Assembly (NCBI GenBank): GCA_043807425.1
Contig: JAZDFZ010000049.1
Span: forward strand, 3,611-67,610
DNA from: Actinomycetota bacterium
GTDB lineage: Bacteria > Actinomycetota > Geothermincolia > Fen-727 > Anoxymicrobiaceae
Direction of reading: 5' to 3'
Length of the DNA: 64,000 bases
Part shown: positions 3,005-48,843 of the stretch, piece after piece
How positions within the stretch are numbered: the stretch's first letter is position 1
How the letters are laid out: each line of letters starts with the position of its first letter
Notes under the pieces: generated by a model
Told to the model about the DNA's origin: nothing
Databases searched by the model: none
What the model saw: only the letters and a program-made list of their open reading frames with translations
Made by a program: the position numbers and the translations under genes

Positions 3005-3160
3005 TCAAACGAAGACGCGGAAAGGCATCTCGCGGGCTTCGCTGAGCAACTTCATCACCCTGCCCCTTCTCTCTTCGTCCAGGCGGACCCCCATCAGGTA
3101 CCCGACGGCGCCCGCGACGAGCAGGAGGAGGGCGAGCATCTTGAGGTTGCTTTTCATCAT
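3005..3160 (-). CDS. small (51 aa) membrane protein, hypothetical
   Basis: ATG 3160-3158 preceded by AAGGAG. MMKSNLKMLALLLLVAGAVGYLMGVRLDEERRGRVMKLLSEAREMPFRVFV. G/C-rich third positions. Sits directly upstream of the CrtI-like gene. Too short for the ORF track. Confidence 0.5.
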   Translation of the reverse strand: MMKSNLKMLALLLLVAGAVGYLMGVRLDEERRGRVMKLLSEAREMPFRVFV

Positions 3161-3274: not shown

Positions 3275-4837
3275 TCAATCGCCCCGGCGCCGCTGGCCGC
3301 TCCCGCCCTCCGGCCAGACCGGCTGGAACCCGTCGGGGAAGACCCTGATGCTCGACGGCTGTGTCGGACAGGTCTCCTCACACGCCCCGCACCCGGTGCA
3401 CTTCGCCGGCACGACCACCGGCACAAGGCCGTCCGCGTCTATCGCGTTGAACCGGCACCTCTCCTGGCACACCAGGCACTGCCGGCCCTTGTGCCCGAGG
3501 CACCTCTTCGTATCGACATGGGCCAGGCCGATAGCCACCCGGTCGGGCGCCTGCTCCTCGATGGCACCGGCCGGGCAGACTCTCCGGCAAGCCTGGTCGC
3601 ACTGCTCGTAGATGCAGCCGGCCGTGCGGGGCACGAACCTGGGGGTCCACAGTTTCTGAAGCCCGCCCTCCAACCCCATGGGTACCAGGCACCCGGCCGG
3701 ACAGGCGCGGACGCACTCCTCGCATCGGTTGCATGCGGCTATGAACCTGGACTCGTCCTGGGCCCCGGGCATCCTCAACGGAGGCTCCGATATCCCCTTC
3801 AGCCCGACCCCGTAGCCTGCAAGCAGCACAGCGCCGAGGCCCGCCGACCCTATGAACTCACGCCTGGTCACGGTCAGGCCCTTACCCGGCGCGGCGTCAG
3901 GAGAAGGCTCGTGACCGGGTCGCGGAACCCGGGCCGGCTTCCCCCTGCCGGAGACGTACAGCGGCTCTCCCACGCTCTTCAGCTCCAGCGCGCCGGGAGA
4001 CGGGCATGACGCCACGCAGTCGCCGCAGGCGACGCAGTCCGCGGAGCGCAACCGGCCCGCATCGCCCTTCAGAAACGGCTCGTCGAGGGCGAAGTCGCAG
4101 TCGCGGTAGCACGCCCCGCAGGAGACGCACGCCGCCGGGTCCTTCACCACCGACAGCGGGCTCACGCGCTCGCTCAGGCGCTTCCCCACCTTCGAAACCA
4201 GGCTGAAGAGCGCTCCCGCCGGACACAGATCCTCGCACCAGAAGCGCGGCCTGTACGCCACCGCCACCAGGACAAAAGCGATGAGGAACCATGGGACCTG
4301 CGGCAGCAGCACGTAGTACACCGCGCGGTTCGCCACGACGAACGGGCTCGCGAAGTACAGGAGGTTGATCCCCGCGAGCGACAGGATGATGACCAGCCCG
4401 AGCAGCAGGTACTTGACGCGCACCTTGCGCCGGACGGGCCCCGAGGCGGCCTCGGCCTTCCTGGCACGGATCTCCCTGCCCCCAGGCCTGTAATACTCCA
4501 TCGAACGGGGCTTGCAGACACCTACCACGTCGAAACAGGTCCCCAGCGGGCATATCCACCCGCAGAAGAAACGGTGTCCCGAGAGCGCTGTTAGTCCGAG
4601 CAGCACCCACGCGGGCCAGAAGGCCACGAACGCCGACAGGCTCCTGGCCCCGGTCAGGGCGATCAGCCCCGCCAGCGGGTCCATGCGCAGGAAGAGGTTC
4701 GCGGGCGGAACAGCCATGGGCGGGTATGCCGCGCGGAAGGTCAGCAGTACGAAGAAGGCCAGGAACGCGATCTGCACGCACCAACGCACGATCCGGACTC
4801 CCCGCCTCCTGCCCCCGTCCCCGCTCATCTCAGACAC
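3275..4837 (-). CDS. membrane polyferredoxin, NapH-like N-terminal half fused to NapG-like C-terminal half
   Basis: 520 aa. Contains RFFCGWICPLGT and RFWCEDLCPAGA membrane motifs, six Cys clusters (CVSCGACYRDC, CVACGDCVASCP, CNRCEECVRACP, CDQACRRVCP, CLVCQERC, CTGCGACEETCP), and an internal twin-arginine-like segment TRREFIGSAGLGAVLLAGYG at residues ~324-343. Confidence 0.75.
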   Translation of the reverse strand: MSEMSGDGGRRRGVRIVRWCVQIAFLAFFVLLTFRAAYPPMAVPPANLFLRMDPLAGLIALTGARSLSAFVAFWPAWVLLGLTALSGHRFFCGWICPLGTCFDVVGVCKPRSMEYYRPGGREIRARKAEAASGPVRRKVRVKYLLLGLVIILSLAGINLLYFASPFVVANRAVYYVLLPQVPWFLIAFVLVAVAYRPRFWCEDLCPAGALFSLVSKVGKRLSERVSPLSVVKDPAACVSCGACYRDCDFALDEPFLKGDAGRLRSADCVACGDCVASCPSPGALELKSVGEPLYVSGRGKPARVPRPGHEPSPDAAPGKGLTVTRREFIGSAGLGAVLLAGYGVGLKGISEPPLRMPGAQDESRFIAACNRCEECVRACPAGCLVPMGLEGGLQKLWTPRFVPRTAGCIYEQCDQACRRVCPAGAIEEQAPDRVAIGLAHVDTKRCLGHKGRQCLVCQERCRFNAIDADGLVPVVVPAKCTGCGACEETCPTQPSSIRVFPDGFQPVWPEGGSGQRRRGD

Positions 4838-5906
4838 TCGCCACCTTCAGCGCGTTGAAGTCGGTCGTGCCCAGTCCGGCCTCGGCAGCGTGGACGATGT
4901 ACGGCACATCGGCGGCGGTCATGCCGAATAGCGTACAGGCGTAGCTGTCCGCGGCCACCACGTCACCGCTGGCGATGACGGTGTTGGCGGCGCGGGTAGC
5001 CCCCGGTCCGCCAGGGCCGTTCTCCAGGAGGATGACGGTCGCGTCGACCACCGAAAGCTTCGGCCTTACCAGGGTAGCCAGGTCGGCTATGGACTGCTGC
5101 AGTCCGTGGTTGTGTATCTCGGACATGTTGGATGTGACGCCGATGAAGTTCTTCAGGCCCAGGCTGAGCCCCGCACTGCCGTGATGCTTGGCCTTGGGGA
5201 CGGTGATGACCACGTCGGCGGCGAGCACCTCGGGGTAGACGTCCGCGCTCGTCATGGCGACCGCATTGGGGATCGGAGTGGTGACACCGCCCCCCTGGTC
5301 GCTCCCGCCGCGCACCAGGAGCTCCGCGCCCGCCGCCCGGGCCGCCGCGCCTATGCCGTTGGCGTTCAGGCACGCCTCCGCCGCACCGCGTAGGGTGTGG
5401 TCGACCAGCAGGACCCTGGCCGCGCCCGCCTCTCTGCACATCTTTATGACCTCGGCCACCACGTCCGGGTTGGTGCTCGTTCCACCTTCCAGGCCGTCCA
5501 TGAAGCTCGCATTCGGCTTCACCACCACCACGTTGCCGGCCTGCACGAACCTGCTCATGCCCCCGATAGCGTCCAGAGCCTTCCGGGTCATCTCGGCCGG
5601 GGTGCCGGTGGTCGCCACCGCGAGGTCCGCGGCCGGCGCCGGCTGCGGCGGCGGGGAAGTCGCCGGAGCGCTGGTCCTGGTCACGGTAGGCGTCCGCCCG
5701 CCGCAAGAGGCCGCGACGGCGCCGAGTGAGGCTCCCAGCAGCACGCCCCCGGCCAGGCGCCCCATCTTTTTCAGGAACTCCCGCCGCTCCAGGTCCCCGC
5801 CGAGCCGTCTTATGACACGCTCGATCTCCTCGGGATCCACAAGCCCGTCGAAACGATTAGGCAACTCCATTGCTCCTTTTTCTACACCCGCGTGAACCGC
5901 GCTCAA
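4830..5906 (-). CDS. DUF362 domain protein with Tat signal peptide
   Basis: RREFLKKMGRLAGGVLLGASLGAVAASCGG, then a Pro/Thr-rich linker, then a DUF362-like body (VVVKPNASF...). Overlaps the polyferredoxin gene by 8 nt. Start is uncertain (TTG 5906 or ATG 5870). Confidence 0.7.
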   Translation of the reverse strand: MSAVHAGVEKGAMELPNRFDGLVDPEEIERVIRRLGGDLERREFLKKMGRLAGGVLLGASLGAVAASCGGRTPTVTRTSAPATSPPPQPAPAADLAVATTGTPAEMTRKALDAIGGMSRFVQAGNVVVVKPNASFMDGLEGGTSTNPDVVAEVIKMCREAGAARVLLVDHTLRGAAEACLNANGIGAAARAAGAELLVRGGSDQGGGVTTPIPNAVAMTSADVYPEVLAADVVITVPKAKHHGSAGLSLGLKNFIGVTSNMSEIHNHGLQQSIADLATLVRPKLSVVDATVILLENGPGGPGATRAANTVIASGDVVAADSYACTLFGMTAADVPYIVHAAEAGLGTTDFNALKVASV

Positions 5907-6003
5907 TCTACCTCATGTATAAAGGACACGCCCATGACAAACAACAACCGACCGACACCTTTAACAGTAAGAACACGCCGTTAACGCCCCCTTCAAGATC
6001 CGC

Positions 6004-6040
6004 CATGTAACAAAAGGGTCTGACCCTTTTGTTACATGGC
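6004..6040. repeat. perfect 37-bp palindrome, member of the GTCWGRC-core element family
   Basis: CCATGTAACAAAAGGGTC-T-GACCCTTTTGTTACATGG has 18-bp perfect arms. Intergenic, between divergent genes. Confidence 0.9.
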
Positions 6041-6099: not shown

Positions 6100-6354
6100 A
6101 TGATGAGAATGCCCGACATGGAGGGTCACGTCTGCCAGTCCTGCGGGATGCCGATGGGCCCCGACGACTACGCCGGCGGAAGCGAGCAGGGCGACTACTG
6201 CAGCTACTGCGTGGTCCACGGTGAGTACACCGCCGACAGGGAGAACGTCAAGCAGAAGATCGCGGACAAGATCCAGGAGATGAGCGGCAAGCCGCGCTCC
6301 GAAGCCGAATCCGAGGCCGAGCAGACCATGTCCGGCCTGAAGCGCTGGCAGTAG
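6100..6354 (+). CDS. putative zinc-ribbon domain protein
   Basis: 84 aa. CQSCGMP...CSYCVVHG Cys pairs. GAGGGGAGA Shine-Dalgarno ahead of the ATG. Confidence 0.6.
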   Translation: MMRMPDMEGHVCQSCGMPMGPDDYAGGSEQGDYCSYCVVHGEYTADRENVKQKIADKIQEMSGKPRSEAESEAEQTMSGLKRWQ

Positions 6355-9463: not shown

Positions 9464-10069
9464 GTGAGGGGAGGCTGGCTGTTGAACGGGGAGGAGAAGA
9501 GAGAGCGGATCCTGGAGGCGGCGGTAAAGCTCTTCGGCGAGAGAGGTTACAACGCTACCAGGATGGCGGAGGTTGCAACGGCGGCCAGGGTGTCGCCCAG
9601 CACCCTCTACAAGATGTTCGACGGCAAGAAGGGGCTCTTTATCGCCACGCGCCAGTGGGTCACCAACAGGGTCCTTGGCCGTCTGATCGAGGCGCTCCCC
9701 GATGATCCCGAAGCCGACGCGTTGACCCTGGTGCGCCGCCTTCTGACTTCTTATACCGCTTACATCCGCAAGCACAGGGAGCTCGCCCGTATCCTGGCCG
9801 AGGGGGTCGTGGGCCAGGACCCCGAGATCCGCGCCGAGCAGTTGACGGCGTTCACCGGCGCCTCAACGATGCTCGCCCAGGTGATCGAGCGGGACGTCAG
9901 CGGGGGAACGGTGAGGCTGGCTACGGATCCCGAGACGGCCGGGTTGCTGTTCGTCTCCTTTACCGCGATGATCGCCTACGCGGTGCTTCTCGACCTGGAC
10001 AGGAGATCGGTTGCCGGGTTCGACCCGGACTATGCGCTGGACCTCTTCTTCGATGTAATCAGGGAGTGA
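9464..10069 (+). CDS. TetR/AcrR family transcriptional regulator
   Basis: N-terminal HTH RERILEAAVKLFGERGYNATRMAEVATAARVSPSTLYKMFDGKKGLF. Confidence 0.85.
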   Translation: MRGGWLLNGEEKRERILEAAVKLFGERGYNATRMAEVATAARVSPSTLYKMFDGKKGLFIATRQWVTNRVLGRLIEALPDDPEADALTLVRRLLTSYTAYIRKHRELARILAEGVVGQDPEIRAEQLTAFTGASTMLAQVIERDVSGGTVRLATDPETAGLLFVSFTAMIAYAVLLDLDRRSVAGFDPDYALDLFFDVIRE

Positions 10070-10700
10070 GTGCTGCGCGCCCGGGCTCTTCGGCGTGATC
10101 CACAAGGCGGTCGATGAGGACCAGCGCAGCGTCCTGCCGGGAGGGGGGCGCGGCGTCCATCATGCCGATGAACCCCAGTGAGTGGATCGCCATGACGTAG
10201 GTCCAGGCGAACTGCTCCAGGTCCAGATCCGGCCTGATGAGCCCGGCCTTCCTCCCCTCGACGAGGATATCCATCACCAGGCGCTCCAGCTCCTTGTAGA
10301 AGGCCTGGGCGCTCCTCATGACGTCCGGGTCGTCGAGCGCGGTCGCGGCCTGAACGTTGACCCGGGCCCTGTCCCGGTTCTGCCTCACCTCGCGGGCGAA
10401 CTCGCGGCCAAGGCTGCGCAGGACCGCGGGAGCCCCACCGCCGATCGGCAGGCGGGGGAGTATCTCCGAGAGCGCGCGTTCGCGCAGCTCGTCGCGAAGC
10501 TCCAGGTAAAGGGTCTTCTTGTCGCCGAAGAGGTCGAAGATCGTCTTCTCGCTGACCCCGGCCTCCGCCGCTATGTCGGCGGTCGTGGCCCCCAGGTAGC
10601 CCTTCTCGCTGAACCTGCGTACCGCGGCGTCCATGATCTGGGTCCGGGTGCCGGCCCCGGGTCCGCGCCCCTTCTTCGTCGTGATCGTCCGCTTTGCCAT
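10059..10700 (-). CDS. TetR/AcrR family transcriptional regulator
   Basis: TQIMDAAVRRFSEKGYLGATTADIAAEAGVSEKTIFDLFGDKKTLY. Start set at ATG 10700 (MAKRTITTKK). Confidence 0.85.
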   Translation of the reverse strand: MAKRTITTKKGRGPGAGTRTQIMDAAVRRFSEKGYLGATTADIAAEAGVSEKTIFDLFGDKKTLYLELRDELRERALSEILPRLPIGGGAPAVLRSLGREFAREVRQNRDRARVNVQAATALDDPDVMRSAQAFYKELERLVMDILVEGRKAGLIRPDLDLEQFAWTYVMAIHSLGFIGMMDAAPPSRQDAALVLIDRLVDHAEEPGRAALTP

Positions 10701-10864
10701 GGTCCCATTGTATAACGCCGGCCTCGTGCGACCGTACCCGGGGGCTGAAAAACCGGTCGCTCGATGTGAATCCACCGCCGTCGAAATGGGATAAAATCGA
10801 TTGGCGTGGCAATCCCCGTCGAATCGGGGGTCGGACCCTTTCCGTGGCATCGGAGGTGAGCGCG

Positions 10865-36218: not shown

Positions 36219-39200
36219 GTGGCAGGCGGACCTGATCTGCTTCCAGCCCGGGGAATGACCCAGCCTAGAACCCGACGGGGGGGGGCCCTAGCCCACGTCT
36301 GCGCTTCCTTCATCGTCATGTTCGTTTGCACGTCCACGTTCATCACCCCAGCGAGCCTGAACGCGGCTGATAACAACTGGAAGTGGGATTTCGATAATCC
36401 ATCGGACTACTCGTTCAACGCCGATTACATTGATGTCACTGGTGCCACTGCGCGTCTAAAAGCATTCCCGCTCGAGGAAGGATGGTGGCAGGGCTACTCT
36501 CCCGCTCAGAACCCTGACGATCTTGGCATCACCGGAGGATCCAGCCTCACCCTCGACCCAAGCGGAAATGCGATCCTTATCGCCAGCGTCAAGGATGATG
36601 GTGACGATCCGTATGACGCGTGGGTCGAGAAGCGACGCGGGTCCGACGGGGCGATTCTCTGGACATCCCGCGAGGATATCGGCGGCTGGGGCCTAGATAA
36701 CAAATGTCAGGCAGTCATCTGCACAACCGGCGGAAGGGTTATCACCGCGGGATACAGTGAGAAACCCGCCGCCGCCGGTACTGAGCTGTGGATCCGTCGG
36801 CAGGATACCACAGGACTGAACCCCATTACTGTTGAGTTCGACCTGCTGAAGCATGTCCAGTGTGCAAGCCTCACATGCGACAAGGCGGGCAACATCCTTG
36901 CGTGCGGCACCACGGTCGACGACCCGAGCCCCTTCGGCACCGAAAAGATGAAGGCCTGGGTGATGAAGCTCGATTCAAATCTGGTCCAGATCTGGCAGCG
37001 TATCTACGCCTATACGGACCCCGGAGCTGACACGTTCGCCCTCTCGATCTCAGCGGATTCGAGCAACAGCCCGGTTGTCGCAGGCTACGTGGCGTACGGT
37101 AGGCCCTACCCGATCAGCACCGACATCTGGGTGAGGAAATATACTACCGGCGGCGATCCTGTATGGGCTGCTGATACGACCATCAGCGTTGATGCCTTCG
37201 ACATGGCGATCTCCGTCGACTGTTGGGACAGGTCGCCGAGTGGGATGACTTCTGACAATCGGATCTTCGTCGGAGGTCTCACGGGACACATGGATGGTTC
37301 GGACCTCATTGGTGAGGCGTTCTATGCTCGGCTGGACCAGAACGGCACCGTTTCGTGGCAACATACCCACACCTCCGCTGGCTACGAGGAAGGGCGGAGC
37401 TTCGTTGCCGCCGATTACAGAGGAGACCTGTCTGTGGCGGCGCAGCACGAGGACGCCGATAGACTGCTCTTCGGCTGGGTCGCGAAATGCGACGGGCAGG
37501 ACGGCTCTACCCGGTTCGAGAACACCCATGCGCTCTCACCGAGCCCCCGCTCGGCCTACTGGACGGCCTTCAGTGTCTCGGATCCGGCTCAACCCCTGGA
37601 ACTCGAGGACGTCGCTTTCGCTTTCACCGGGTCGTCGATTGAAGGCGAGATAACGGTGAGGAAGTACCCGATGACTAAGTACTCCTCGCTCTCCCCCGCG
37701 ATTTCCACGAGCAAGCGTCCGCTCGATACTAGCGAACAGGCTCCTACCAACTTCTCGATGGCATTCGGGGCCGGCAATCATGGAACGGTACTCTTTCAGC
37801 TTTCCAACAACCTGAGCACCTGGTACTGGCACAACGGGTCGGCCTGGAAGTCCACGAACTGGGCTGGAGGTCCCATTTGGGATGCATGCCAAGCCAACAC
37901 CGTCGCCGAGATTGACACGAACATCTCCACGTTCGACACGGGCACGAACAAGGCCCTTTACGTCAGAGTGTTCCTGAGGGGTGATGGAGATCAGCAGGTC
38001 GTCCTGGACTGGATATCCTGCGACAGTAGGCCCGCGGAGGAGTGCCACACATGGTACTTCGCCGATGGCTCAACCGCCTGGGGCTTTGACGAGTACGTAG
38101 CGGTCATGAACCCGAACAAACGTCCGGCCCTTGTCGAGATCACTTACATGCTTCCCAATGGCGATTCGGACAACCTGCTTGCCCGCGAGACCGCAGCTCC
38201 GTGGCTGTACCCTGACAAGAAGCTATGGGTGGATCCCTATTCCAGGGCAACTGTCCATGTGGACCACTTGTTAGATGATGTCGATCTGTCACTCAGACTG
38301 GAAGCCAGAGGCGAGGACGAGCAGCACGTAGGCGTGGTCGCCGAACGAACCTTGATTAAGACCGTGGGAGGTGTGCCGCTTCAATGCGGCTCAGTAGGCG
38401 CTGGCACGACCCGTCCTTCCAACACCTGGTATTTCGCGGAGGGGACGATCCGCGACGGCTTCGAGACCTACTTCTGCATCCAGAACCCGGAAACCACCAA
38501 TGCGAATGTGACTCTGGACTTCATGAAGGGAGATGGGGGCTCGGTCAGCTATACACTTGATGTTCCTGCCAATTCAAGAAAGACGGTGAATGCTAGGACT
38601 GACGTATCACTCTCACCGGGTTCCGAGGTCGCCAGGGACTTCTCATGCGAGGTGAGCTCCACCTCCGGCATCATCGTCGAGCGCTCCATGTCGGCAAACG
38701 ACTGGCAGGCCTTCGACGGCACTCTCGGCACAACTGCCCCGGCTACGACCTGGCACTTCGCTGAGGGTTGCACGAACTATGGTTTTGAGACCTTTCTGTT
38801 AGTGCAGAATCCAGGCGACGCCGAAGCAGCCGGCATAGCAACCTTCTTCTGGAGCGAACCTGATCCCAATGATCCTTGCGCTCCCAGGGTGCCCAAGGAG
38901 TATGCTCAGCCTTTCTTGGTAGCACCTAGAAGTAGGGTGACCATTGTACCAGCTCAATTCATCGGCCCTCAGGAATTCTCCTCGAGGTTGGATTTGAGCC
39001 TTCCCGTGGTCTGCGAGCGCTCCATGTACTGGAACTCGAGGCGCGGACTCCACGCCGCCAGCGGGATCGCGCAGGCGAGACCCTACGTCTACTTCGCTGA
39101 AGGTTCCACTGCCAAGATGAACGGCTTCGAAGAGTACCTCTGCATCCAGAACCCGAACGGCGTAGACATAAAGGTCACAATCACAGCCCTGACCCCGTGC

Positions 39201-39458
39201 GGCCCGGGCGGGTTTCTCGAGTTCACGGTTAGAAAGAACACGAGAACCACCATCGATATTTTCAATGTCGTCAAGGACAAGGAGAACTCGCTGGAGGTCT
39301 ACTGCTCCGATGTAGTCGCCTACGAGTTCATCGCCGAGAGGTCGCTCTACTGGCGGGACGAGACCGGGGCCAAACGGGGTGGAGGAGTGACAACGGGTTA
39401 CCGGTCGCTCCCACGGATCGGAGACATGCCGGAACTGTCATGGAAACCACCGAAATGA
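36219..39458 (+). CDS. secreted giant protein 1: signal peptide, beta-propeller-like repeats, middle domain, four WxFAEG/xNP/ER-MY modules
   Basis: 1079 aa. Hydrophobic N-terminus ALAHVCASFIVMFVCTSTFITPASLNA. Recurring A/GGY...W motifs (VITAGYS, PVVAGYV, IFVGGLTG). Modules begin at residues ~611, 735, 843 and 956. Start could be ATG 36255. Confidence 0.8.
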   Translation: MAGGPDLLPARGMTQPRTRRGGALAHVCASFIVMFVCTSTFITPASLNAADNNWKWDFDNPSDYSFNADYIDVTGATARLKAFPLEEGWWQGYSPAQNPDDLGITGGSSLTLDPSGNAILIASVKDDGDDPYDAWVEKRRGSDGAILWTSREDIGGWGLDNKCQAVICTTGGRVITAGYSEKPAAAGTELWIRRQDTTGLNPITVEFDLLKHVQCASLTCDKAGNILACGTTVDDPSPFGTEKMKAWVMKLDSNLVQIWQRIYAYTDPGADTFALSISADSSNSPVVAGYVAYGRPYPISTDIWVRKYTTGGDPVWAADTTISVDAFDMAISVDCWDRSPSGMTSDNRIFVGGLTGHMDGSDLIGEAFYARLDQNGTVSWQHTHTSAGYEEGRSFVAADYRGDLSVAAQHEDADRLLFGWVAKCDGQDGSTRFENTHALSPSPRSAYWTAFSVSDPAQPLELEDVAFAFTGSSIEGEITVRKYPMTKYSSLSPAISTSKRPLDTSEQAPTNFSMAFGAGNHGTVLFQLSNNLSTWYWHNGSAWKSTNWAGGPIWDACQANTVAEIDTNISTFDTGTNKALYVRVFLRGDGDQQVVLDWISCDSRPAEECHTWYFADGSTAWGFDEYVAVMNPNKRPALVEITYMLPNGDSDNLLARETAAPWLYPDKKLWVDPYSRATVHVDHLLDDVDLSLRLEARGEDEQHVGVVAERTLIKTVGGVPLQCGSVGAGTTRPSNTWYFAEGTIRDGFETYFCIQNPETTNANVTLDFMKGDGGSVSYTLDVPANSRKTVNARTDVSLSPGSEVARDFSCEVSSTSGIIVERSMSANDWQAFDGTLGTTAPATTWHFAEGCTNYGFETFLLVQNPGDAEAAGIATFFWSEPDPNDPCAPRVPKEYAQPFLVAPRSRVTIVPAQFIGPQEFSSRLDLSLPVVCERSMYWNSRRGLHAASGIAQARPYVYFAEGSTAKMNGFEEYLCIQNPNGVDIKVTITALTPCGPGGFLEFTVRKNTRTTIDIFNVVKDKENSLEVYCSDVVAYEFIAERSLYWRDETGAKRGGGVTTGYRSLPRIGDMPELSWKPPK
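38049..39400 (+). repeat. four tandem coding modules in protein 1
   Basis: TWYFADG..VMNP..VAERTL; TWYFAEG..IQNP..IVERSM; TWHFAEG..VQNP..VCERSMYW; YVYFAEG..IQNP..IAERSLYW. Confidence 0.85.
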
Positions 39459-42316
39459 TCAGGGGCGCCTCAGGCGATTATCGCGGACGCCGCTCGTCTA
39501 AACTAGCGGTCGTCCCGGCGGTCCTGCTGGCGGCTCTGTTGCTCATTCCTGCCGGTCAAGTAGGGGGAGCCGACGCAGGGGTCGATGCGAATACGAAGAT
39601 CCTGGGCATACAAGTGCACTCGTCGAACTCTCCTACCTGGAAGGAAGGTGGTGCCACAAAGTACCAGTTCAGTCCTGTGCCCGAGGTATACCAAAGCAAG
39701 TTTGAAGGTGTGTGTGTATACGTCCCGTGGTATGAATTCGAGATCGGTGAGGGTCTATACAACATCGACAAGTACAAGCAGATCTTCGAGGATATCAAGG
39801 CCGCGGGAATTAAGCATGTAAAGGTGTGCTTCTGTCATTTCCTACCGGGTCATGTTCGCAATGCAATCCATAGGAGGTTCGAGAAAGGTGAACGTACGTA
39901 TACAGGCGACTATGCTGAAGCATGGGAGCCATGGGTCGCTTCCTGGGCAAACAGAGATCCTGACAATGCAAGCGGGTTAACGTCGATGCATGATTTCACA
40001 AACTGGTGGTCCACTCAGTTATTCACGGGCACTGGCTCTGACTTCAAGCAGATGAGGACCGCAGGAGATGCCTTCTATGGCTTTGCTGTCAATCTTGCGA
40101 TCCCTGAGTACAAGGCCATGGTCCGCGAGTTTGCCCGGAACTTCCGCCAGTATGTCGATGTCTGGGAACCATGGGATGAGCCGGGGTGGGGACTTAACAC
40201 ATGCGCTTCGGGAGTCAATATCTACTCGGATTCGGGCTCCATAAACTGGCCTAGAAAAGGATCTAATCTCTCGATAACACGCTTCTCCGGCTGGCCCACA
40301 CAGATGACCATCAAGGATTCCTGGGGCGAGAGAATAGTCCCGAGTGACTACGAGAAGGTCCACCTCGCATGCTACGAGGCCCTTGAGACCGCTTACAGTG
40401 GGAGCGGAAAGGAGCCTTACCTACTGACCTCATCCCTGGTCGGCGGGAACTCTTTGCTGGATAAGCCGTATACGGAATTCAATGGGAACCTGGTCGGATA
40501 CAACTGCAATGACACCACGCCATACACCACCCTTGCCGAGAGGGACGTCTCTGTGGTGGTCCGGTCGGACAGAGAGGTGATCTCCGAGCGACCTGTGTAC
40601 TTCAACTACAACGGATGGTGTCCGGGCGGCCACGTGACGGCGGGCACAACCTCTCCATCCAAGGACTGGTACTTCGCCGAAGGCAACACGCTTTCCAACT
40701 TCGACGAGTACATCACCGTATACAATCCCAGCTCCACCAAGGCCTCCCTGGCTCTCGACTACATGATCGAGGGTATCGGGCTGGTTCAGAGAGCAGAAAC
40801 GGTCAACGCTTACTCCAGGGCGACCTTCCGTGCAAAGGAGCATCTCAAGGACAACGCGGCTTATCTCGGGGGCAATGTCAGCTTGCACCTGCGCTCGAGT
40901 ACGCCCGTACTGGCCGAAAGACCGATGTACTTCGACTACTACGGTATCACCGGCGGGGACTGCGCCGTTGGAGCCAAGACCATCTCCAGTACTTCCTTCT
41001 TCGCCGAGGGCACCACCATGCCCGGCTTCGACGAATGGCTGTGCCTGCAGAACCCCAACGCGGAGGATATGGTCATAAATGCCACTTATATGATGGAAAA
41101 CCGAGATCCGGTATACCAGGAATACCTGGTACCACAGCACCAGCGGTACACCATCAAGGTCAATGATGTAGTAGGCCCATACGCTAACGTATCGGTTGCC
41201 CTCTCCTCCGACAAAGGCTTCGTTGCCGAGCGCCCCATGTACTTCCGGGCTTTCAGACCCGATGTCACCTACTCGGGAGGCCATGACATCGTCGGAGCTC
41301 CCTCTCCCAAGAAGACCTGGCACTTCGCCGAGGGCACCACTCGCAAGAACGAGGTAGATGGCTTCTTCGAGGAATGGCTCTGCCTGCAGAATCCCAATCC
41401 TGAAGAGGTAACGGTCAATGCAACCTATATGCTTGCGGGCAAGGAACCGATATTTGCGAGCTATCAGGTCCCGCCAAGCCAGAGGCTCACCATAGAGGTA
41501 AGCAACCCCGAGTTTATCGAGCAGGGAAACGACGTGTCGGTGTTGCTCTCGTGCGAATCCCCGTTCGTCGCCGAACGTCCCATGTACTTCAATGTCTCCG
41601 GTAAGACCCCCCCGAACGTATTCAATGGTGGCAGCGTTAGCATGGGAGGAGAGCCCAGCACCAAGACTTACTTCGCGGAGGGAAGGGTGTCGCCGGTGTT
41701 CGATGAGTGGATAACGATCGTGAATCCAAATGACGAAGAAGCCAAGGTCCATATTGATACCTACTACAGCACCATTAAAGGAAAGACCGCACACGTCAAG
41801 ATCCCCCCGAAGCAGAGATACACGCTTCTGCTCAACAAACTCCCTCCCGGTGCTTACGCATGGACGGACGCGGTATCTCTCCACCTGTTCGACATGCCTT
41901 CTCTCTGGCCCGGCATCTACCAGGGACTGAAGGACGAACTCCACAAGCGATTCATCGACAAAGAACTCGCGGTCTCTTCCTGCGGGTGGGGACACGGGAA
42001 ATCCGTCATGAGCGTCGAGGATGAGAATTACTACTACAACCCGGTTGAGGAAGGCGCGGAGGCTGAATATCCGCATTCCAGAGACGGACAGGCAAGGGCG
42101 GTACGTGACTGGATCAGGGCCTTGTTCGACCAGGGATGCAACAAGGTCTGGTTCTTCCAAGACATCGACCCCCGGAAGACAGAGGACAGATTCTTCGGGC
42201 TGTTCATGTACACAACACACGCCCCACTCACGGAATCCGCGATAGAGCCGACTGATGCGTGGTGGGAGTACGTGAAGTTGCAGGAGTGGTTGAAATCATC
42301 TGGGGGATCGGAATAA
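39455..42316 (+). CDS. secreted giant protein 2: signal/anchor, glycoside-hydrolase-like barrel halves flanking four modules
   Basis: ATG 39455 overlaps the protein-1 stop (ATGA). KLAVVPAVLLAALLLIPAG anchor. YVPWYEFEIGEGLYN..., VDVWEPWDEPGW, then the module array, then ...KVWFFQDID...FFGLFMY. Confidence 0.8.
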   Translation: MIRGASGDYRGRRSSKLAVVPAVLLAALLLIPAGQVGGADAGVDANTKILGIQVHSSNSPTWKEGGATKYQFSPVPEVYQSKFEGVCVYVPWYEFEIGEGLYNIDKYKQIFEDIKAAGIKHVKVCFCHFLPGHVRNAIHRRFEKGERTYTGDYAEAWEPWVASWANRDPDNASGLTSMHDFTNWWSTQLFTGTGSDFKQMRTAGDAFYGFAVNLAIPEYKAMVREFARNFRQYVDVWEPWDEPGWGLNTCASGVNIYSDSGSINWPRKGSNLSITRFSGWPTQMTIKDSWGERIVPSDYEKVHLACYEALETAYSGSGKEPYLLTSSLVGGNSLLDKPYTEFNGNLVGYNCNDTTPYTTLAERDVSVVVRSDREVISERPVYFNYNGWCPGGHVTAGTTSPSKDWYFAEGNTLSNFDEYITVYNPSSTKASLALDYMIEGIGLVQRAETVNAYSRATFRAKEHLKDNAAYLGGNVSLHLRSSTPVLAERPMYFDYYGITGGDCAVGAKTISSTSFFAEGTTMPGFDEWLCLQNPNAEDMVINATYMMENRDPVYQEYLVPQHQRYTIKVNDVVGPYANVSVALSSDKGFVAERPMYFRAFRPDVTYSGGHDIVGAPSPKKTWHFAEGTTRKNEVDGFFEEWLCLQNPNPEEVTVNATYMLAGKEPIFASYQVPPSQRLTIEVSNPEFIEQGNDVSVLLSCESPFVAERPMYFNVSGKTPPNVFNGGSVSMGGEPSTKTYFAEGRVSPVFDEWITIVNPNDEEAKVHIDTYYSTIKGKTAHVKIPPKQRYTLLLNKLPPGAYAWTDAVSLHLFDMPSLWPGIYQGLKDELHKRFIDKELAVSSCGWGHGKSVMSVEDENYYYNPVEEGAEAEYPHSRDGQARAVRDWIRALFDQGCNKVWFFQDIDPRKTEDRFFGLFMYTTHAPLTESAIEPTDAWWEYVKLQEWLKSSGGSE
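40502..41900 (+). repeat. one half-module plus four tandem coding modules in protein 2
   Basis: ...ISERPVYF; DWYFAEG..VYNP..LAERPMYF; TSFFAEG..LQNP..VAERPMYF; TWHFAEG..LQNP..VAERPMYF; KTYFAEG..IVNP.. (divergent end). Confidence 0.85.
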
Positions 42317-45048
42317 TGGACATGAATAAGATGCTCAAAGCGTCGGCAGTGGCCGTCATTGCCATCATCGCGGTGTGTTCAGCTATGAAGTGTTCAACCG
42401 ATTCACTGGCAGAACCTGTTGTTGAGTGGCCAGAAGGTGTCGTTAGAGTAAGCCAGCAACCTGCTGTCTCATTACTGAACATCCACGATGGTCTGGGTGG
42501 GGTCATTGTCTTGTTCAGAGACGAGGGCGATATCAACAAGTACTACATCAAGCGCGTTTGCTCGGACGGCACCTCGCTAGCGGGTTGGGGCGGTGGGCTT
42601 GAATGCCCCAAGACAAATCGCTTGGTTCCAGATGGAAGCGGGGGGGTTTGGCTTCTATACCTGGAGGATAGCTCGGAGCGTTTCCGACTCACTCTGTTGA
42701 GGCATTATTTCGGGGACGGGTCCGTTGATAGCGAAGTACAGGAAGGGAAGTCACTTATAGATCTGCCAACAGCCAACTTCCCAACGGTGCTCCTCGTAGA
42801 TGAATTCGGTGGTGTCTATTTCGCGTGGACTGATTGGCACATGGACAGCCCTCACTACCAGACTATCTACTGCGTACGCTACGATAAATATTTCAACGTA
42901 ACGCCAGGCTGGAACCCTGCAGGGAATCTCGTGGGAGTGATTGCTACACCGGGTGGTGAAACGTTCCTCAATCAAATACGTGGCGATGGCAGTGGCGGAG
43001 TATTCCTGGTATGGAATGAGAAGCCCGCTGATGGACCATATCGGTTGACAAGGGTTGATTCAAATGGAAGTCACCACCCTGGTTATTCTACCTTCGGCAA
43101 GCCGCTTGAGGGCACGCTCAGTTGGCGAAAGGACGAGTGGGGGGAAGAGCAACGCGGCTCTATTCTACTCACTGCGGAAGTGGATGAGGAGGGGGGAGTC
43201 TATTTCGTATGGTCAGAGGAATGCGCCGAGAGCTTCGTCGATTACGATCATGCTGTTTTCGCAGGCAAACGGGACTCTGATGGGAAACTGTTGTGGCAGT
43301 GCCTGATGGGATGCTATCACACGGAGGGAACGAGTCCATGGTTGATTCCCGACTGCTATGGTGGCGCATACGCGTTTGCTGAAGAGAGATGGCAGGAATA
43401 TGGCAGCAATGCTACTAAGGATCATGCCGGCCATTTCGAGAGGAATGGACGTCTTTCCAGTGGCTGGCCTCGAGAGCTGCCATTCACTATCCCTGAGTTC
43501 AACATCCCGGCAAGCGGACTGAATGGGTGGCCTGTATACCCGGACCTGGAAGGTGGCTTCTATGCTATCGGAGGAGAAAAGTGGCTGAGATTCGACAAGA
43601 GCGGGGCGGAGCATACCGGCTGGCCACAGGCCGGTGCGCCTGTTGGGATGTACGTCAACTACTTCTGGAATGTACCGCCCCGGGTGAGCCCCCGGTCGTT
43701 CATAGCACTTCAGGATGCCGGTGCTGGGAGTTGTCTCTATGTCTTCAAATTCACCGACCGCCTGGAGCCCCCGAACTTCGATACCTACATCCTGGTGGAG
43801 AACCCGAGCGACCAGGAGGCCGAGGTGTTCTTCAGCCTGATGCTGGAGGACGGAACCTACCGCAAGATAATGAAGGTGGTCCCCGCCCGCTCCCGGCAGA
43901 CCGTGAAGGTCAACGACTACACCCCCTACAAGGCCGTATCCACCAAGGTCGAATCCAGCGTTCCCGTGATAGCCGAGCGCGCCATGTACTTCGACTACCT
44001 GGGCTTCTTCAAGGGAGGGCACGACTGCTCCGGGCTGCCCGCCCCGGGTAAGACCTGGTACCTGGCAGAGGGGTACACCGCCGAGGGCTTCGACACCTAC
44101 TTGTTACTTCAGAATCCCGGGGAGACCGAGGCCTCTGCTAAAGTCACCTACATGCTGCCGGGCTCCAAGACGCAAGGGGAGACCTACTCCGTGCCCGCCC
44201 ACTCCAGGAAGACGGTGTCTGTGGACTCCATCCCCGGCCTTGAGGCCACCGAGCTCTCCATGAGGGTGGACTCTAACGTCGATATCGTGGCCGAGCGTGC
44301 CATGTATTTCGAGTACTACGGCAAGGTGGGAGGACACGTGCAGGCCGGGGTATCATCGCCCTCCGATACCTGGCAGTTCGCCGAGGGCTACACCGCCGAA
44401 GGCTTCGACTCCTACGTCCTGCTGCAGAACCCGGGAGACTCCCCCGCGCACGTCTCCCTCACCTTCATGGAGCCCGACGGCAACACGACCGGGGAGACCA
44501 GAACGATAGAAGCCCATTCCAGGGACACCGTAAAAGTGGACGACATAGGGGGCCTCTCCTCCTCTGAGTTCTCCACCTCCATAACCTCGGACGAACCCAT
44601 TATCTGCGAGAGAGCGATGTACTTCGACTACACGGGGGGCATCGACGGGGGACACGACGCGGTCGGGGCTTCCGCCACCTCTACAACCTGGCACCTCGCC
44701 GAGGGCTACACGGCGGGGGAGTTCGACACCTTCGTGCTGCTCTCCAACCCTTCCGACCAGACTGCGCACGTACGGGCAACCTTCTACAGGTCACAGGGGA
44801 CGCCGGTCACCCAGGAGTTCTCCATGGCAGCCGGAACGCGCCATACCATCGAGACCGACAAGATCCCCGGCCTCGAGGCCGCCGAGTTCTCGACCCTCAT
44901 CGAAAGCACCAACGGCATCGGGGTAGTAGCGGAGCGGGCCGTCTATTTCTCATACGGCTCGGAAGGGTGGCGAGACGGACACGCTGCCCTCGGAGTCACG
45001 GCTCCCTCGACAGACTGGTACTTCGCGGAGGGGTACACGGGGCTATAG
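42316..45048 (+). CDS. secreted giant protein 3: signal peptide, eight-fold DxxGG repeat region, four modules
   Basis: ATG 42316 overlaps the protein-2 stop (TAATG). MDMNKMLKASAVAVIAIIAVCSA signal. Eight D-x-x-G-G-h-aromatic units, then four modules. Ends ...TDWYFAEGYTGL. Confidence 0.8.
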   Translation: MDMNKMLKASAVAVIAIIAVCSAMKCSTDSLAEPVVEWPEGVVRVSQQPAVSLLNIHDGLGGVIVLFRDEGDINKYYIKRVCSDGTSLAGWGGGLECPKTNRLVPDGSGGVWLLYLEDSSERFRLTLLRHYFGDGSVDSEVQEGKSLIDLPTANFPTVLLVDEFGGVYFAWTDWHMDSPHYQTIYCVRYDKYFNVTPGWNPAGNLVGVIATPGGETFLNQIRGDGSGGVFLVWNEKPADGPYRLTRVDSNGSHHPGYSTFGKPLEGTLSWRKDEWGEEQRGSILLTAEVDEEGGVYFVWSEECAESFVDYDHAVFAGKRDSDGKLLWQCLMGCYHTEGTSPWLIPDCYGGAYAFAEERWQEYGSNATKDHAGHFERNGRLSSGWPRELPFTIPEFNIPASGLNGWPVYPDLEGGFYAIGGEKWLRFDKSGAEHTGWPQAGAPVGMYVNYFWNVPPRVSPRSFIALQDAGAGSCLYVFKFTDRLEPPNFDTYILVENPSDQEAEVFFSLMLEDGTYRKIMKVVPARSRQTVKVNDYTPYKAVSTKVESSVPVIAERAMYFDYLGFFKGGHDCSGLPAPGKTWYLAEGYTAEGFDTYLLLQNPGETEASAKVTYMLPGSKTQGETYSVPAHSRKTVSVDSIPGLEATELSMRVDSNVDIVAERAMYFEYYGKVGGHVQAGVSSPSDTWQFAEGYTAEGFDSYVLLQNPGDSPAHVSLTFMEPDGNTTGETRTIEAHSRDTVKVDDIGGLSSSEFSTSITSDEPIICERAMYFDYTGGIDGGHDAVGASATSTTWHLAEGYTAGEFDTFVLLSNPSDQTAHVRATFYRSQGTPVTQEFSMAAGTRHTIETDKIPGLEAAEFSTLIESTNGIGVVAERAVYFSYGSEGWRDGHAALGVTAPSTDWYFAEGYTGL
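43741..45045 (+). repeat. four tandem coding modules in protein 3 (register shifted by one strand)
   Basis: NFDTYILVENP..IAERAMYF..TWYLAEGYT; GFDTYLLLQNP..VAERAMYF..TWQFAEGYT; GFDSYVLLQNP..ICERAMYF..TWHLAEGYT; EFDTFVLLSNP..VAERAVYF..DWYFAEGYT. Confidence 0.85.
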
Positions 45049-46417: not shown

Positions 46418-47536
46418 ATGTCAACAGCGCTCGCGAGACTGATGGAGCTGAGGAACGACCCGTACGCGCGCGCTCGTGCCTGGAAGGAGCGCACGGGAGG
46501 CAGGGTGGTGGGGTTCTTCTGCTGCTACGCGCCCGAGGAGTTGATCTACGCGGCCGGCGCGCTCCCGGTGCGGATCACGGGCGAGAACCGTACCGTGTCG
46601 AAAGCGGGCGCGCACCTGCAGAGCTACTGCTGCTCGCTGGCACGCACGGGGCTGGACATGGCGCTGACCGGAGACCTCGCGCTCCTTGACGGGACGGTGT
46701 TCGTCCATACCTGTGACACCATGCAGCGCCTCAGCGATATCTGGAGGCTGAATGCCGGGTACGCCTTCCACGTGGACTTCGTGCTCCCCGTGCGATTCGA
46801 GGGGAAGCTCGCGACCGAGTACACCCGGGCCGAGCTCGGTTTGGTACGGAGCAAGCTGGCCAACGCCCTGGGGCAGTTCGATGACGACACCATAAGGGAG
46901 AGCATAGGGGTCTACAACAGGAACCGCGCCCTGCTGGGCGAGCTGTACGACCTGCGCAGGGAAGATCCCGGCATAATGCCGTGCGACCAGGCGGTCTGGA
47001 TCGTCGCATCCGCTGCGCTCATGGACAAGGCTGAGCACAACGAGATCCTCGAGGAGATACTGGTGGACCTGCGGGGGGCATCGAGCGGGCCGGAGAAGAC
47101 CCGGTTGTTCGGGGTCGGCTCGGTCATGGACCAGTGGGAGTTCCTCCGCATGATGGAGGACCTGGGAGGAACATTCGCCGACGACGACTTCTGTACCGGG
47201 CACCGTTACTTCGAAGGGGACGTGTCCGAGGAGGGCGACCCGCTGGACGCGCTGACGGCGAGGCTCATGGAACGCGGCCAGTGTGCCTGCAAGCATACAC
47301 CCGACCGGGAGCGCCCGGCGCGGATCGTACAGCGTGCCCGCGCGTGCGGTGCCAGGGGCGCCATCTTCTTCCAGTTCAAGTTCTGCGAGCCGCACGGGTT
47401 CGACTACCCGTTCATCAAGACCGCCCTCGACGACGCGGGATTCTCGACACTCGAGCTGGAGTTCGAGCAGGGGTCGGTCTCCATCGAGCAGCTCCGCACC
47501 CGGGTGGAAGCACTCCTCGAGACGGTATCGGCTTGA
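46418..47536 (+). CDS. 2-hydroxyacyl-CoA dehydratase / benzoyl-CoA reductase family subunit
   Basis: 372 aa. VVGFFCCYAPEELIYAAGALPVRI...VHTCDTMQ...FFQFKFCEPHGFDYP. Confidence 0.8.
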   Translation: MSTALARLMELRNDPYARARAWKERTGGRVVGFFCCYAPEELIYAAGALPVRITGENRTVSKAGAHLQSYCCSLARTGLDMALTGDLALLDGTVFVHTCDTMQRLSDIWRLNAGYAFHVDFVLPVRFEGKLATEYTRAELGLVRSKLANALGQFDDDTIRESIGVYNRNRALLGELYDLRREDPGIMPCDQAVWIVASAALMDKAEHNEILEEILVDLRGASSGPEKTRLFGVGSVMDQWEFLRMMEDLGGTFADDDFCTGHRYFEGDVSEEGDPLDALTARLMERGQCACKHTPDRERPARIVQRARACGARGAIFFQFKFCEPHGFDYPFIKTALDDAGFSTLELEFEQGSVSIEQLRTRVEALLETVSA

Positions 47537-47537
47537 G

Positions 47538-47556
47538 CCCGGGCTCTCAGCCCGGG
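47538..47556 (+). other. intercistronic hairpin between the two dehydratase subunit genes
   Basis: CCCGGGCT-CTC-AGCCCGGG, an 8-bp perfect stem starting 2 nt after the stop. Confidence 0.4.
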
Positions 47557-47587
47557 ATGAAGCGTGGCAGCACAAGGGGGTAATGAC

Positions 47588-48805
47588 TTGGCCGACGAGA
47601 GGATCAAGAGCCCGAAGATACAGGCCACCGAGCAGATGAAGCAGCTCATCACCGAGTACTACATCGACGCCAAGACCACGAAGCTCCCCGAGGGCTCACA
47701 CAAGCCCATCTGCTGGATAACCTCGGGCGGGCCGGTGGAGTTCCTTATCGCGGCAGACGTAATTCCCATCTACCCGGAGAACCACGGTGCGATGTGCGGC
47801 GCGGCCAAGATCGCGCCGGGCCTTGCCGAGGTGGCCGAGAAGATGGGTTTCAGCCGCGACCTCTGTTCGTACGCGCGGGCCGACATCGGTGGGGCGCTTA
47901 CCGAGAGCGGCGCAATACCCGGGGGCCTGCCTAAGCCGGACTTCCTGCTGTGCTGCAACAACATCTGCGGGACGGTGGTCAAATGGTACGAGGAGCTGGC
48001 GCGCATCTTCGACGTCCCCATGTTCCTGTTCGACACCCCCTTCATCCACGTGGAGAAGCCCGAGCACGCCACCGAGTACGTCCGACAGCAGTGCCTGGAG
48101 CTGGTGGAGTTCCTGAGCGAGCGGACCGGCAACGAGTTCAGCCTCGAGCGGTTCGCGGAGGTGGCGATGCTCTCGGTCGAGGCGGTCGACCTCTGGAAGG
48201 GGGTCCTCGCGACCGCGGAGAGCAGGCCCAGCCCGTTCACCTGCTTCGACGCCTTCATCCACATGGCCCCGATCGTCACCCTGCGGGGGACGCAGAAGGT
48301 GGTCGACTACTACAAGCTGCTCAAGAAGGAGATGGAGGACCGCGTGGCGCAGGGCGTCGGGGCTGTGCAAGACGAGAGGTACCGCCTCATCTGGGACAAC
48401 ATCCCCATATGGTACGAGATGCGCAACCTGGGCAACCTCTTCGCCGAGAACGGGGCCTGCCTGGTCGCCGACACCTACACCACGGCCTGGGCAGTGGACA
48501 TAAAGATCGAGGACCCGCTGACCAGCATGGCCGACGCCTACACCAAGGTCTACCTCAACATCTCCATCGACATCATGCTCGAGCAGCTGGTGGAGCTCAT
48601 GGAGAGGTACGAGGCGGACGGGCTGGTCATGCACTCCAACCGGTCCTGCAAGCCGTACTCGCTGGGGCAGTACGACCTGTCCCGGGCCGTAGCCGAGCGC
48701 ACGGGCAAGCCGTCACTCATAATCGAGGCGGACATGACCGACTCGCGCGTCTACTCAGAGGCACAGACCCGCGAGCGCGTGGAGGCGTTCATCGAGAGCC
48801 TGTAG
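47588..48805 (+). CDS. 2-hydroxyacyl-CoA dehydratase / benzoyl-CoA reductase family subunit
   Basis: ICWITSGGPVEFLIAADVIPIYPENHGAMCGA...LCSYAR...CCNNICGTVVKWY...MHSNRSCKPY. TTG 47588 follows AAGGGGG. The track start 47564 is an alternative. Confidence 0.8.
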   Translation: MADERIKSPKIQATEQMKQLITEYYIDAKTTKLPEGSHKPICWITSGGPVEFLIAADVIPIYPENHGAMCGAAKIAPGLAEVAEKMGFSRDLCSYARADIGGALTESGAIPGGLPKPDFLLCCNNICGTVVKWYEELARIFDVPMFLFDTPFIHVEKPEHATEYVRQQCLELVEFLSERTGNEFSLERFAEVAMLSVEAVDLWKGVLATAESRPSPFTCFDAFIHMAPIVTLRGTQKVVDYYKLLKKEMEDRVAQGVGAVQDERYRLIWDNIPIWYEMRNLGNLFAENGACLVADTYTTAWAVDIKIEDPLTSMADAYTKVYLNISIDIMLEQLVELMERYEADGLVMHSNRSCKPYSLGQYDLSRAVAERTGKPSLIIEADMTDSRVYSEAQTRERVEAFIESL

Positions 48806-48843
48806 CGCCGGCACCTGCCGGCCGACGGAAGGGCGGAGACGGG

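Follow-up and report, generated by a model that had tools for sequence, protein, structure and literature searches.

A coupled DUF362 and polyferredoxin gene pair in an Anoxymicrobiaceae genome probably belongs to a widespread extracytoplasmic redox module

The stretch of DNA analyzed here (the window; 64,000 nt, positions 3,611 to 67,610 of the forward strand of contig JAZDFZ010000049.1, assembly GCA_043807425.1) comes from a member of the Anoxymicrobiaceae (Actinomycetota) and encodes, side by side on one strand, a DUF362 protein and a polyferredoxin in which a NapH-like membrane half is fused to a NapG-like iron-sulfur half. We found that genes for these two proteins are near-obligate neighbors, that each product carries a conserved motif of the twin-arginine translocation (Tat) pathway, and that the DUF362 protein, as modeled, has a fold like that of LarA, whose enzymes work with nickel-pincer nucleotide (NPN) as their cofactor, together with a set of conserved residues in the matching region. 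We consider it likely that the locus is one representative of a widespread and uncharacterized two-gene redox module that operates outside the cytoplasm. The window's copy is an ordinary member of the module, and the carriers are mostly anaerobes and soil bacteria.

Read from its GTG start, the polyferredoxin is 520 aa long, and the in-frame ATG at 4828 that the gene callers chose (P0001) gives 517 aa. The original prediction, a note made from the DNA letters, had described an 8-nt overlap between the polyferredoxin and DUF362 genes. We found that this overlap exists with the GTG start, whereas the ATG start leaves a 1-nt gap between the two open reading frames (ORFs); the genes are tightly coupled whichever start applies. 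The fused NapH-NapG architecture described in the same note is real, as NCBIfam matches, the mapping of transmembrane (TM) helices and cysteines, and conservation all attest. The NapH/MauN model TIGR02163 matched residues 52 to 280 (E = 2e-22, 80 bits; cut-off 213) and the NapG model NF007012 matched residues 346 to 502 (E = 1e-23, 83.6 bits), without reaching its equivalog cut-off of 269; the NapH model NF007013, at 71.8 bits, likewise stayed below its equivalog cut-off of 234. Hydropathy placed four helices in the NapH-like half (TM1 at residues 16 to 34, TM2 at 67 to 85, TM3 at 144 to 162, and TM4 at 176 to 194), and a Pro/Gly-rich linker separates this half from the segment TVTRREFIG.

The cluster motifs of the polyferredoxin are strictly kept. 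Two CxxCxxCxxxC motifs lie in the NapH-like half, and although both had been expected to end in proline, a proline follows only the second, which begins at residue 268. Sixteen cysteines in the NapG-like half form four further cluster motifs, at residues 369 to 379, 408 to 421, 446 to 461, and 480 to 490. Across a set of 16 diverse homologues (32 to 63% identity), every cluster cysteine was invariant, and a motif of the RPPGA type was also conserved. An AlphaFold2 model of the protein was of moderate confidence (mean predicted local distance difference test score [pLDDT] of 69) and contained a lone helix at residues 322 to 341 flanked by disordered linkers; a Foldseek search with this model returned generic ferredoxin-domain matches only, all with E values above 0.04.

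The fusion of NapH to NapG is not a novelty, as it is the hallmark of a known class, the "polytopic polyferredoxin," whose proteobacterial members are about 30% identical to the window's protein. Within the window's family the fused form prevails, whereas in sister families (genomes G071 to G100) the NapH-like and NapG-like halves are separate, adjacent ORFs. Given that the halves are split in the sister families and fused in the window's own, we conclude that fusion or fission happened within the window's class.

Tooke et al. (2017; PMC5449189) described this class, which they found in many phyla: NapH is fused to NapG, the protein has five TM helices, and a conserved twin-arginine pair stands directly ahead of the last of them. 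Using reporter fusions, they established that the MLMS-1 polyferredoxin requires Sec, Tat, and the arginine pair, and that the hand-over from Sec to Tat depends on the last helix being weakly hydrophobic and having positive charges behind it. Judged from its sequence, the window's polyferredoxin shares these hand-over features. R325 and R326 (nucleotides 3860 to 3865) lie within TVTRREFIG, the first arginine is invariant, and the pair is present in 13 of the 16 homologues. TM5 is the least hydrophobic helix of the protein, with a Kyte-Doolittle mean of 1.67 compared to 1.84 to 2.44 for the others (the published analysis used delta-G[app] in place of this scale), and two positive charges, K347 and R354, follow within 8 residues of its end. 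TatC is encoded in the window's own genome. The positively charged residues of the NapH-like half fall on predicted cytoplasmic loops, and the prediction puts its CX3CP and two [4Fe-4S] motifs on the cytoplasmic side. The NapG-like half is accordingly predicted to lie outside the cytoplasm, a placement that the original prediction had also proposed and that stands in light of the class described by Tooke et al., the conserved arginine pair, and the properties of TM5.

The partner protein matches the DUF362 family model PF04015 over profile positions 1 to 199 of 200 (149.4 bits against a gathering cut-off of 24, E = 2e-43). Its longest ORF would encode 358 aa; starts at ATG 5870 (346 aa) or TTG 5864 (344 aa; the gene caller's choice, P0121) appear more likely, because an AAGGAG site precedes them. 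Near its N terminus, a run of 17 uncharged residues separates the sequence ERREFLK from A-A-S-C56. In our alignment of 39 relatives (alignment A2), R29 of this motif is invariant, and a cysteine in the lipobox column is common to most members, usually as L-A-G-C. Residues 55 to 80 have low pLDDT in the model and look like a linker. The DUF362 partner is therefore likely, as far as such motifs can tell, a Tat-exported lipoprotein, and the earlier suggestion that it combines a Tat motif with a possible lipobox was borne out by these features and by their conservation among relatives. We also observed that actinobacterial DUF362 partners share a conserved extension of about 28 residues ahead of the arginine pair (window 5787 to 5870, minus strand), with a helix predicted at residues 13 to 23. 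This extension would be an unusually long Tat n-region and could serve as a chaperone binding site.

Whether the two genes keep company in other genomes was a check set in advance, and the result was clear. A scan for the polyferredoxin in one genome per species turned up 408 relatives, of which we retained 80 loci, spread over more than 15 phyla; at these, neighbors were detected by running purpose-built hidden Markov models (HMMs) on six-frame ORFs. Counting as a strong partner any DUF362 gene on the same strand within 2.5 kb, we found one at 65 of the 80 loci, again in more than 15 phyla, and partial or divergent DUF362 copies at 3 further loci. The DUF362 gene was directly adjacent in 55 of these 65 cases (52 directly upstream of the polyferredoxin and 3 directly downstream), and 59 of the 65 partner proteins carry an N-terminal xRRxF[LI] motif. 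Anchoring the comparison on DUF362 gave the same picture, with the polyferredoxin immediately downstream of all 20 best DUF362 matches in Acidobacteriota genomes. Three separate contig look-ups, for homologues from two Actinomycetota (63% and 43% identity) and a Desulfovibrio (31%), each showed DUF362 directly upstream.

The window's genome holds 11 DUF362 matches, of which only the window copy is of the partner subtype according to our HMMs, and it holds one full polyferredoxin. A correlation test within the window's own class was uninformative, as 44 of its 51 genomes carry the polyferredoxin. We conclude that the polyferredoxin and the Tat-exported DUF362 protein form a functional pair. A literature search (DUF362, PF04015, COG2006, and nickel-pincer combined with twin-arginine) found no paper on this pair. 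A class of proteins that has so far been a curiosity of membrane insertion without a function thus gains a near-obligate, Tat-exported partner in more than 15 phyla. At about 10 loci (L010, L024, L040, L051, L054, L063, L067, and L072 among them; at roughly 7.5 to 8.6 kb), a DUF6599 gene (PF20244) directly follows the polyferredoxin, and in one homologue of 823 aa (P0106) the two are fused. At such loci the module may have DUF6599 as a third subunit; the window has none.

The fold of the DUF362 partner offers the most direct hint of what it might do. Its AlphaFold2 model was confident (pLDDT 89.3), and in a Foldseek search against the PDB, all 18 matches with E values below 1e-3 were LarA-family nickel-pincer enzymes, i.e., lactate and malate racemases and LarA-like proteins. 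These matches (E values of 9e-7 to 3e-4) cover part of LarA only, with TM-scores of 0.36 to 0.48 over 205 to 273 columns. Searching PDB sequences with the DUF362 protein and its profile gave nothing meaningful, and the link to LarA comes from the fold search only. PF09861 (Lar_N) did not match the window's DUF362 protein and was marginal in 1 of 39 relatives (E = 0.034). DUF362 and the LarA N-terminal domain are placed in one Pfam clan, CL0471 (PMC11770544). The LarA-like, nickel-pincer type of fold that the model indicates for the DUF362 partner is, we believe, new here.

In LarA, NPN is held by a tether to Lys184 and its nickel is coordinated by His200, with His108 and His174 as the catalytic residues (PMC11770544); in our own alignment of 13 LarA homologues, His174, Lys184, and His200 appear as an invariant H-x9-K-x15-H pattern. 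A local hhalign alignment (E = 1e-4, probability 56%) paired H230, K240, and H253 of DUF362 with the equivalents of His174, Lys184, and His200, with 13 residues from K240 to H253 compared to 16 from Lys184 to His200. Among 68 orthologues, K240 and K228 are present in all 68, H230 in 65, and H253 in 64. Invariant positions in alignment A2 are K118, P135, K228, H230, K240, G244, H253, D303, and D308. That alignment contains no conserved cysteine and no iron-sulfur Cys motif.

Two further observations concern DUF362 itself. In two of the three Sporomusa partner proteins encoded beside lar genes (L008:5017-5991 and L017:5017-5991), serine takes the place of His230, the counterpart of the catalytic histidine, and Lys240 and His253 are kept. 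The window also encodes a second DUF362 domain (PF04015, 107 bits; frame 47950 to 49968 within region 46418 to 49968, plus strand), directly after a homologue of the 2-hydroxyglutaryl-CoA dehydratase D-component (46418 to 47536), which looks like a cytoplasmic paralogue beside 2-hydroxyacyl chemistry.

A second line of evidence comes from the genes for NPN biosynthesis. When all neighbor ORFs at the 80 loci were clustered, LarC, LarE, and LarB emerged as recurrent families, each above its NCBIfam equivalog cut-off. Counting lar genes as adjoining the module if they lay no more than 6 kb away, we found them at 7 loci in three phyla (3 Sporomusa, 3 Terracidiphilus, and 1 Hydrogenedentes), compared to 0.32 loci expected by chance (p = 5e-8; counting each of the three lineages as a single event gives p = 0.004). 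The Sporomusa order is DUF362, polyferredoxin, LarC, LarE, and in some cases LarB, all on one strand. Sporomusa silvacetica (L008) and Terracidiphilus (L067) have neither a LarA nor an aldo-keto reductase (AKR) gene in the 6 kb around the module, and an AKR gene is present near the module in Sporomusa malonica (L018).

The association extends beyond immediate neighbors. LarC was present in 42 of the 50 module genomes scored for lar genes, and at least 15 of these 42 had no LarA match at all. Among 201 Acidobacteriota genomes, LarC occurred in 56 of the 63 that carry DUF362 compared to 94 of the remaining 138 (an odds ratio of 3.7; p = 0.0015, uncorrected for phylogeny). The window's genome itself carries a larE-larB-larC operon on another contig, along with two LarA homologues.

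These features can be assembled into a provisional mechanism. Sec would insert TM1 to TM4 in such a way that the CX3CP motifs and two [4Fe-4S] clusters face the cytoplasm. If the window's protein behaves like its MLMS-1 homologue, Tat would recognize the weakly hydrophobic TM5 behind T-R-R-E-F and translocate the folded NapG-like domain with its four clusters, with TM5 remaining as an anchor. The DUF362 protein would be exported by Tat in a folded, cofactor-loaded state and, in this monoderm host, would probably be lipid-anchored at Cys56. We picture it as the catalytic partner, docking on the NapG-like domain, and, by analogy with NapGH, the iron-sulfur chain would connect the DUF362 site with the quinone pool, with electrons flowing in either direction. 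The site would be built from the near-invariant residues K118/N120, K228, H230, K240, H253, D276, and D308, and would most likely hold a cofactor that is loaded in the cytoplasm.

NPN, tethered to Lys240 and with His253 as a nickel ligand, is our leading candidate for that cofactor, a tentative choice to which we would give somewhat less than an even chance. Since the DUF362 protein is always paired with an iron-sulfur wire, we would expect net redox chemistry rather than racemization. Our best guess at the substrate is hydroxy-acid or sugar alcohol/carbonyl chemistry outside the cytoplasm. Weak hints in this direction are that the window's flanks encode carbohydrate-active proteins of extracytoplasmic type (DUF4015, a CE4-type deacetylase, and GH172/DUF2961), that a GH127 gene with a Tat signal lies near the module in L067, and that fusions of DUF362 with CBM9 and dockerin domains are reported from gut metagenomes (PMC5742341).

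Several of our results weigh against this account, some of them touching the module as a whole and most of them the cofactor. Roughly 15% of the polyferredoxin loci are without a nearby DUF362 gene and show a redoxin, an EamA transporter, or an FMN_bind protein as neighbors, so the polyferredoxin can serve other partners. The Pfam TAT_signal model did not match the N terminus of the window's DUF362 protein and matched 4 of 39 relatives, and we used motif conservation as Tat evidence in its place. The proposed quinone link derives from a distant NapH homology (80 bits against a cut-off of 213). Our literature search retrieved no paper giving a DUF362 function or a link to Tat, a polyferredoxin, or NPN, and no DUF362 experiment. 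For the NPN proposal in particular, the alignment probability of 56% is low, and we know of no precedent for coupling a hydride-carrying cofactor to one-electron iron-sulfur clusters. No LarA_C domain was found in DUF362 (about 260 to 265 aa when mature), nor did the DUF362 alignments contain the DxTR (Arg75) phosphate motif or a conserved equivalent of the second catalytic histidine, His108; some true LarA homologues likewise have a single catalytic histidine (PMC12611868). No lar genes adjoin the module in the window, and our association statistics carry no correction for phylogeny.

Finally, both LarB and LarC are missing from 6 of the 50 module genomes, two of them closed, in which the Lys and His residues are nevertheless all kept. 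Because 5 of these 6 genomes encode true LarA homologues, a lack of larBC genes does not cleanly indicate a lack of the cofactor. Five genomes (G012, with a closed chromosome and locus L022, G017, G021, G024, and G039) have a strong LarA (PF09861) match, no LarC (PF01969), and no LarB above the cut-off, and are worth recording in their own right: either they have an alternative route to NPN, or their LarA homologues work without the nickel-pincer cofactor.

The alternative that survives best keeps the module and its topology and places another cofactor, or a simple metal ion, in DUF362, with the likeness to LarA reflecting nothing beyond common ancestry in clan CL0471. We regard this as a real possibility, if one that we would sooner doubt than adopt. 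The six genomes just described and the missing LarA C-terminal domain and DxTR motif fit it well, as does Bacteroides thetaiotaomicron, which in our control panels has DUF362 and lacks LarC, and at some loci a nearby NphT-type AKR (PMC13524815) could be what the lar genes really serve; L018 has an AKR gene. That last explanation does not extend to S. silvacetica, whose larCEB genes directly follow the polyferredoxin on the same strand, with no LarA or AKR gene in the surrounding 6 kb. Moreover, LarC is found in 84 to 89% of module genomes, the three residues that hold NPN in LarA are the very ones whose aligned counterparts are conserved in DUF362, and a protein exported by Tat should receive its cofactor in the cytoplasm, while this one has no iron-sulfur Cys motif of its own.

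A second alternative concerns the source of electrons. The polyferredoxin might not be linked to quinones and might instead take electrons from ferredoxin or another donor in the cytoplasm and deliver them across the membrane by way of the NapH clusters. A pure quinol dehydrogenase has no obvious need of two cytoplasmic [4Fe-4S] motifs, and flavodoxin and ferredoxin genes adjoin the module in Desulfovibrio and Sporomusa. Set against this, no intramembrane redox center is predicted that would bridge the two faces, and the characterized relatives, NapGH of Escherichia coli and Wolinella, are quinol dehydrogenases (cited in PMC5449189). We consider such a route improbable and retain exchange with the quinone pool as the preferred scheme.

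The original prediction had called the internal arginine pair a relic. Taken further, this would allow TM5 to be inserted by Sec, or not to span the membrane at all, and the NapG-like half possibly to stay in the cytoplasm, and the modest confidence of the polyferredoxin model (pLDDT 69) leaves some space for such a topology. Against the relic interpretation stand the dependence of the homologous MLMS-1 protein on Tat and on its arginine pair (PMC5449189) and the conservation of the pair across phyla. In addition, the low hydrophobicity of TM5 and the trailing positive charges are marks of Tat-dependent final helices, and the DUF362 partner is itself targeted to Tat. Because the architecture described by Tooke et al. 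needs a functional internal Tat signal and the motif is conserved across phyla, the pair is probably a working signal, and we judge the alternative topology very unlikely. The idea that this is an ordinary NapGH serving periplasmic nitrate reductase (or NosGH or MauMN), beside an incidental DUF362 gene, is one we reject as scarcely credible: NapG and NapH are indeed the best NCBIfam matches, but at 80 to 84 bits against equivalog cut-offs of 213 to 269, no NapA, NosZ, or mau gene appeared in Pfam scans of the window's flanks or of related loci, and adjacency kept across more than 15 phyla contradicts an incidental neighbor.

If NPN is indeed the cofactor, the Tat-exported DUF362 proteins would be a new structural class of NPN enzyme, the first outside the cytoplasm and the first wired by iron-sulfur clusters to the quinone pool; this broader proposal is as tentative as the choice of NPN. 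Were it true, a nickel-pincer cofactor would for the first time be placed outside the cytoplasm, where it would carry out net redox chemistry linked to respiration, perhaps on sugars or hydroxy acids, in place of the "hidden" redox chemistry of the racemases. NPN chemistry would then extend from racemization and hydride shuttling to catalysis coupled to electron transport, and many of the larBCE sets found in genomes without larA would be accounted for.

The positions of all features are collected in Table 1. One of them, a small single-TM ORF, has a C-terminal EAREMPFRVFV motif that recurs in small ORFs at the corresponding position of L001 and L003; it is probably, from these sequence features, a real small membrane protein, and its membership in the module is uncertain.

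Table 1. Positions within the window of the features described in the text
Feature	Position (nt)	Strand	Basis
Polyferredoxin gene, five-TM NapH-NapG fusion	3275..4837	-	ORF, NCBIfam, hydropathy, homologue conservation; class in PMC5449189
NapH-like half: TM1 to TM4, two CX3CP motifs, two [4Fe-4S] motifs	3968..4837	-	TIGR02163, hydropathy, Cys positions
CX3CP motif 1, within FFCGWICPLG at residues 90-99	4547-4564	-	Cys mapping
CX3CP motif 2, within RFWCEDLCPAG at residues 198-208	4220-4237	-	Cys mapping
Two CxxCxxCxxxC [4Fe-4S] motifs, from residues 237 and 268	4001-4129	-	Cys mapping
Internal twin-arginine motif T-R-R-E-F-I-G, residues 324-330	3848..3868	-	Sequence, conservation
TM5, putative signal-anchor helix, residues 328-346	3800..3856	-	Hydropathy, AlphaFold2 helix
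NapG-like domain, four [4Fe-4S] motifs, predicted extracytoplasmic	3278..3799	-	NF007012, 16 conserved Cys
Exported DUF362 gene, longest ORF	4830..5906	-	PF04015 match
Twin-arginine motif E-R-R-E-F-L-K, residues 28-34 of the 346-aa form	5769..5789	-	Sequence
Putative lipobox A-A-S-C56, ahead of a Pro/Ala/Thr-rich tether	5703..5714	-	Cys column in alignment A2
DUF362 domain, LarA-like alpha/beta fold (modeled)	4935..5528	-	Pfam, AlphaFold2, Foldseek
His230-x9-Lys240-x12-His253, candidate cofactor site	5112..5183	-	hhalign to LarA, conservation
Small single-TM ORF, 51 aa, AAGGAG site	3005..3160	-	Upstream of CrtI-family gene (1428-2972, -)

Two other features of the window lie outside the gene pair. 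A perfect 39-bp palindrome at 6002 to 6040 (GCCATGTAACAAAAGGGTC / GACCCTTTTGTTACATGGC; 19-nt arms with a 1-nt spacer) sits where the promoters of the DUF362 operon and of a Zn_ribbon_2 gene (6100 to 6354, plus strand) diverge. It may be an operator, and two TetR-family genes lie at 9464 to 10850; as a conserved operator we rejected it, since the homologous loci L001, L003, and L009 showed no palindrome at the corresponding position. Farther along (36219 to 45048, plus strand), three consecutive large ORFs of 1079, 958, and 929 aa each gave a weak-to-moderate DUF5719 match.

Among known systems, the closest to the window's polyferredoxin is the protein of delta proteobacterium MLMS-1 (Q1NSB0; Tooke et al. 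2017, eLife 6:e26577), which it resembles in the fusion itself, in its five TM helices, in the arginine pair ahead of a weak TM5 with trailing charges, and in having two cytoplasmic and four outside [4Fe-4S] motifs, an arrangement whose class spans many phyla. That study addressed insertion only and named no function, partner, or DUF362 protein. The NapGH systems of E. coli and Wolinella succinogenes, together with NosGH and MauMN, are built from these two modules as well, agree with the polyferredoxin in Cys motifs and predicted sidedness, and probably have in common with it the task of connecting an extracytoplasmic catalytic protein with the quinone pool. The polyferredoxin differs from them in that it unites the modules in one polypeptide and scores below their cut-offs, and in that its partner is DUF362, in contrast to NapAB/NapC, NosZ, or methylamine dehydrogenase.

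On the side of the partner, DUF362 and LarA have in common their clan (CL0471) and an alpha/beta fold; the His-x9-Lys of DUF362 and its downstream His can be aligned, by the local match given above, with those of LarA, and lar genes recur as neighbors of the module. LarA is about 420 aa long, whereas DUF362, at about 260 aa, is without LarA_C, DxTR (Arg75), and a His108 equivalent, and is exported by Tat and paired with an iron-sulfur wire. A precedent for a fold other than that of LarA using the nickel-pincer cofactor is the aldo-keto reductase NphT (Nat Chem 2026, PMC13524815), and the same work showed that such enzymes can be traced when they co-occur with larBCE and carry a His/Lys motif; proteins homologous to LarA were deliberately set aside in that study. 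NphT is unlike DUF362 in being a TIM barrel that shuttles hydride and has no iron-sulfur partner. Finally, MsrPQ and the fused Sco3746 use heme b and the molybdenum cofactor and are unrelated in sequence to the module, yet they follow the same logic, in which a Tat-exported extracytoplasmic catalyst is fed by a membrane redox subunit, and, as with the polyferredoxin, both split and fused forms exist.

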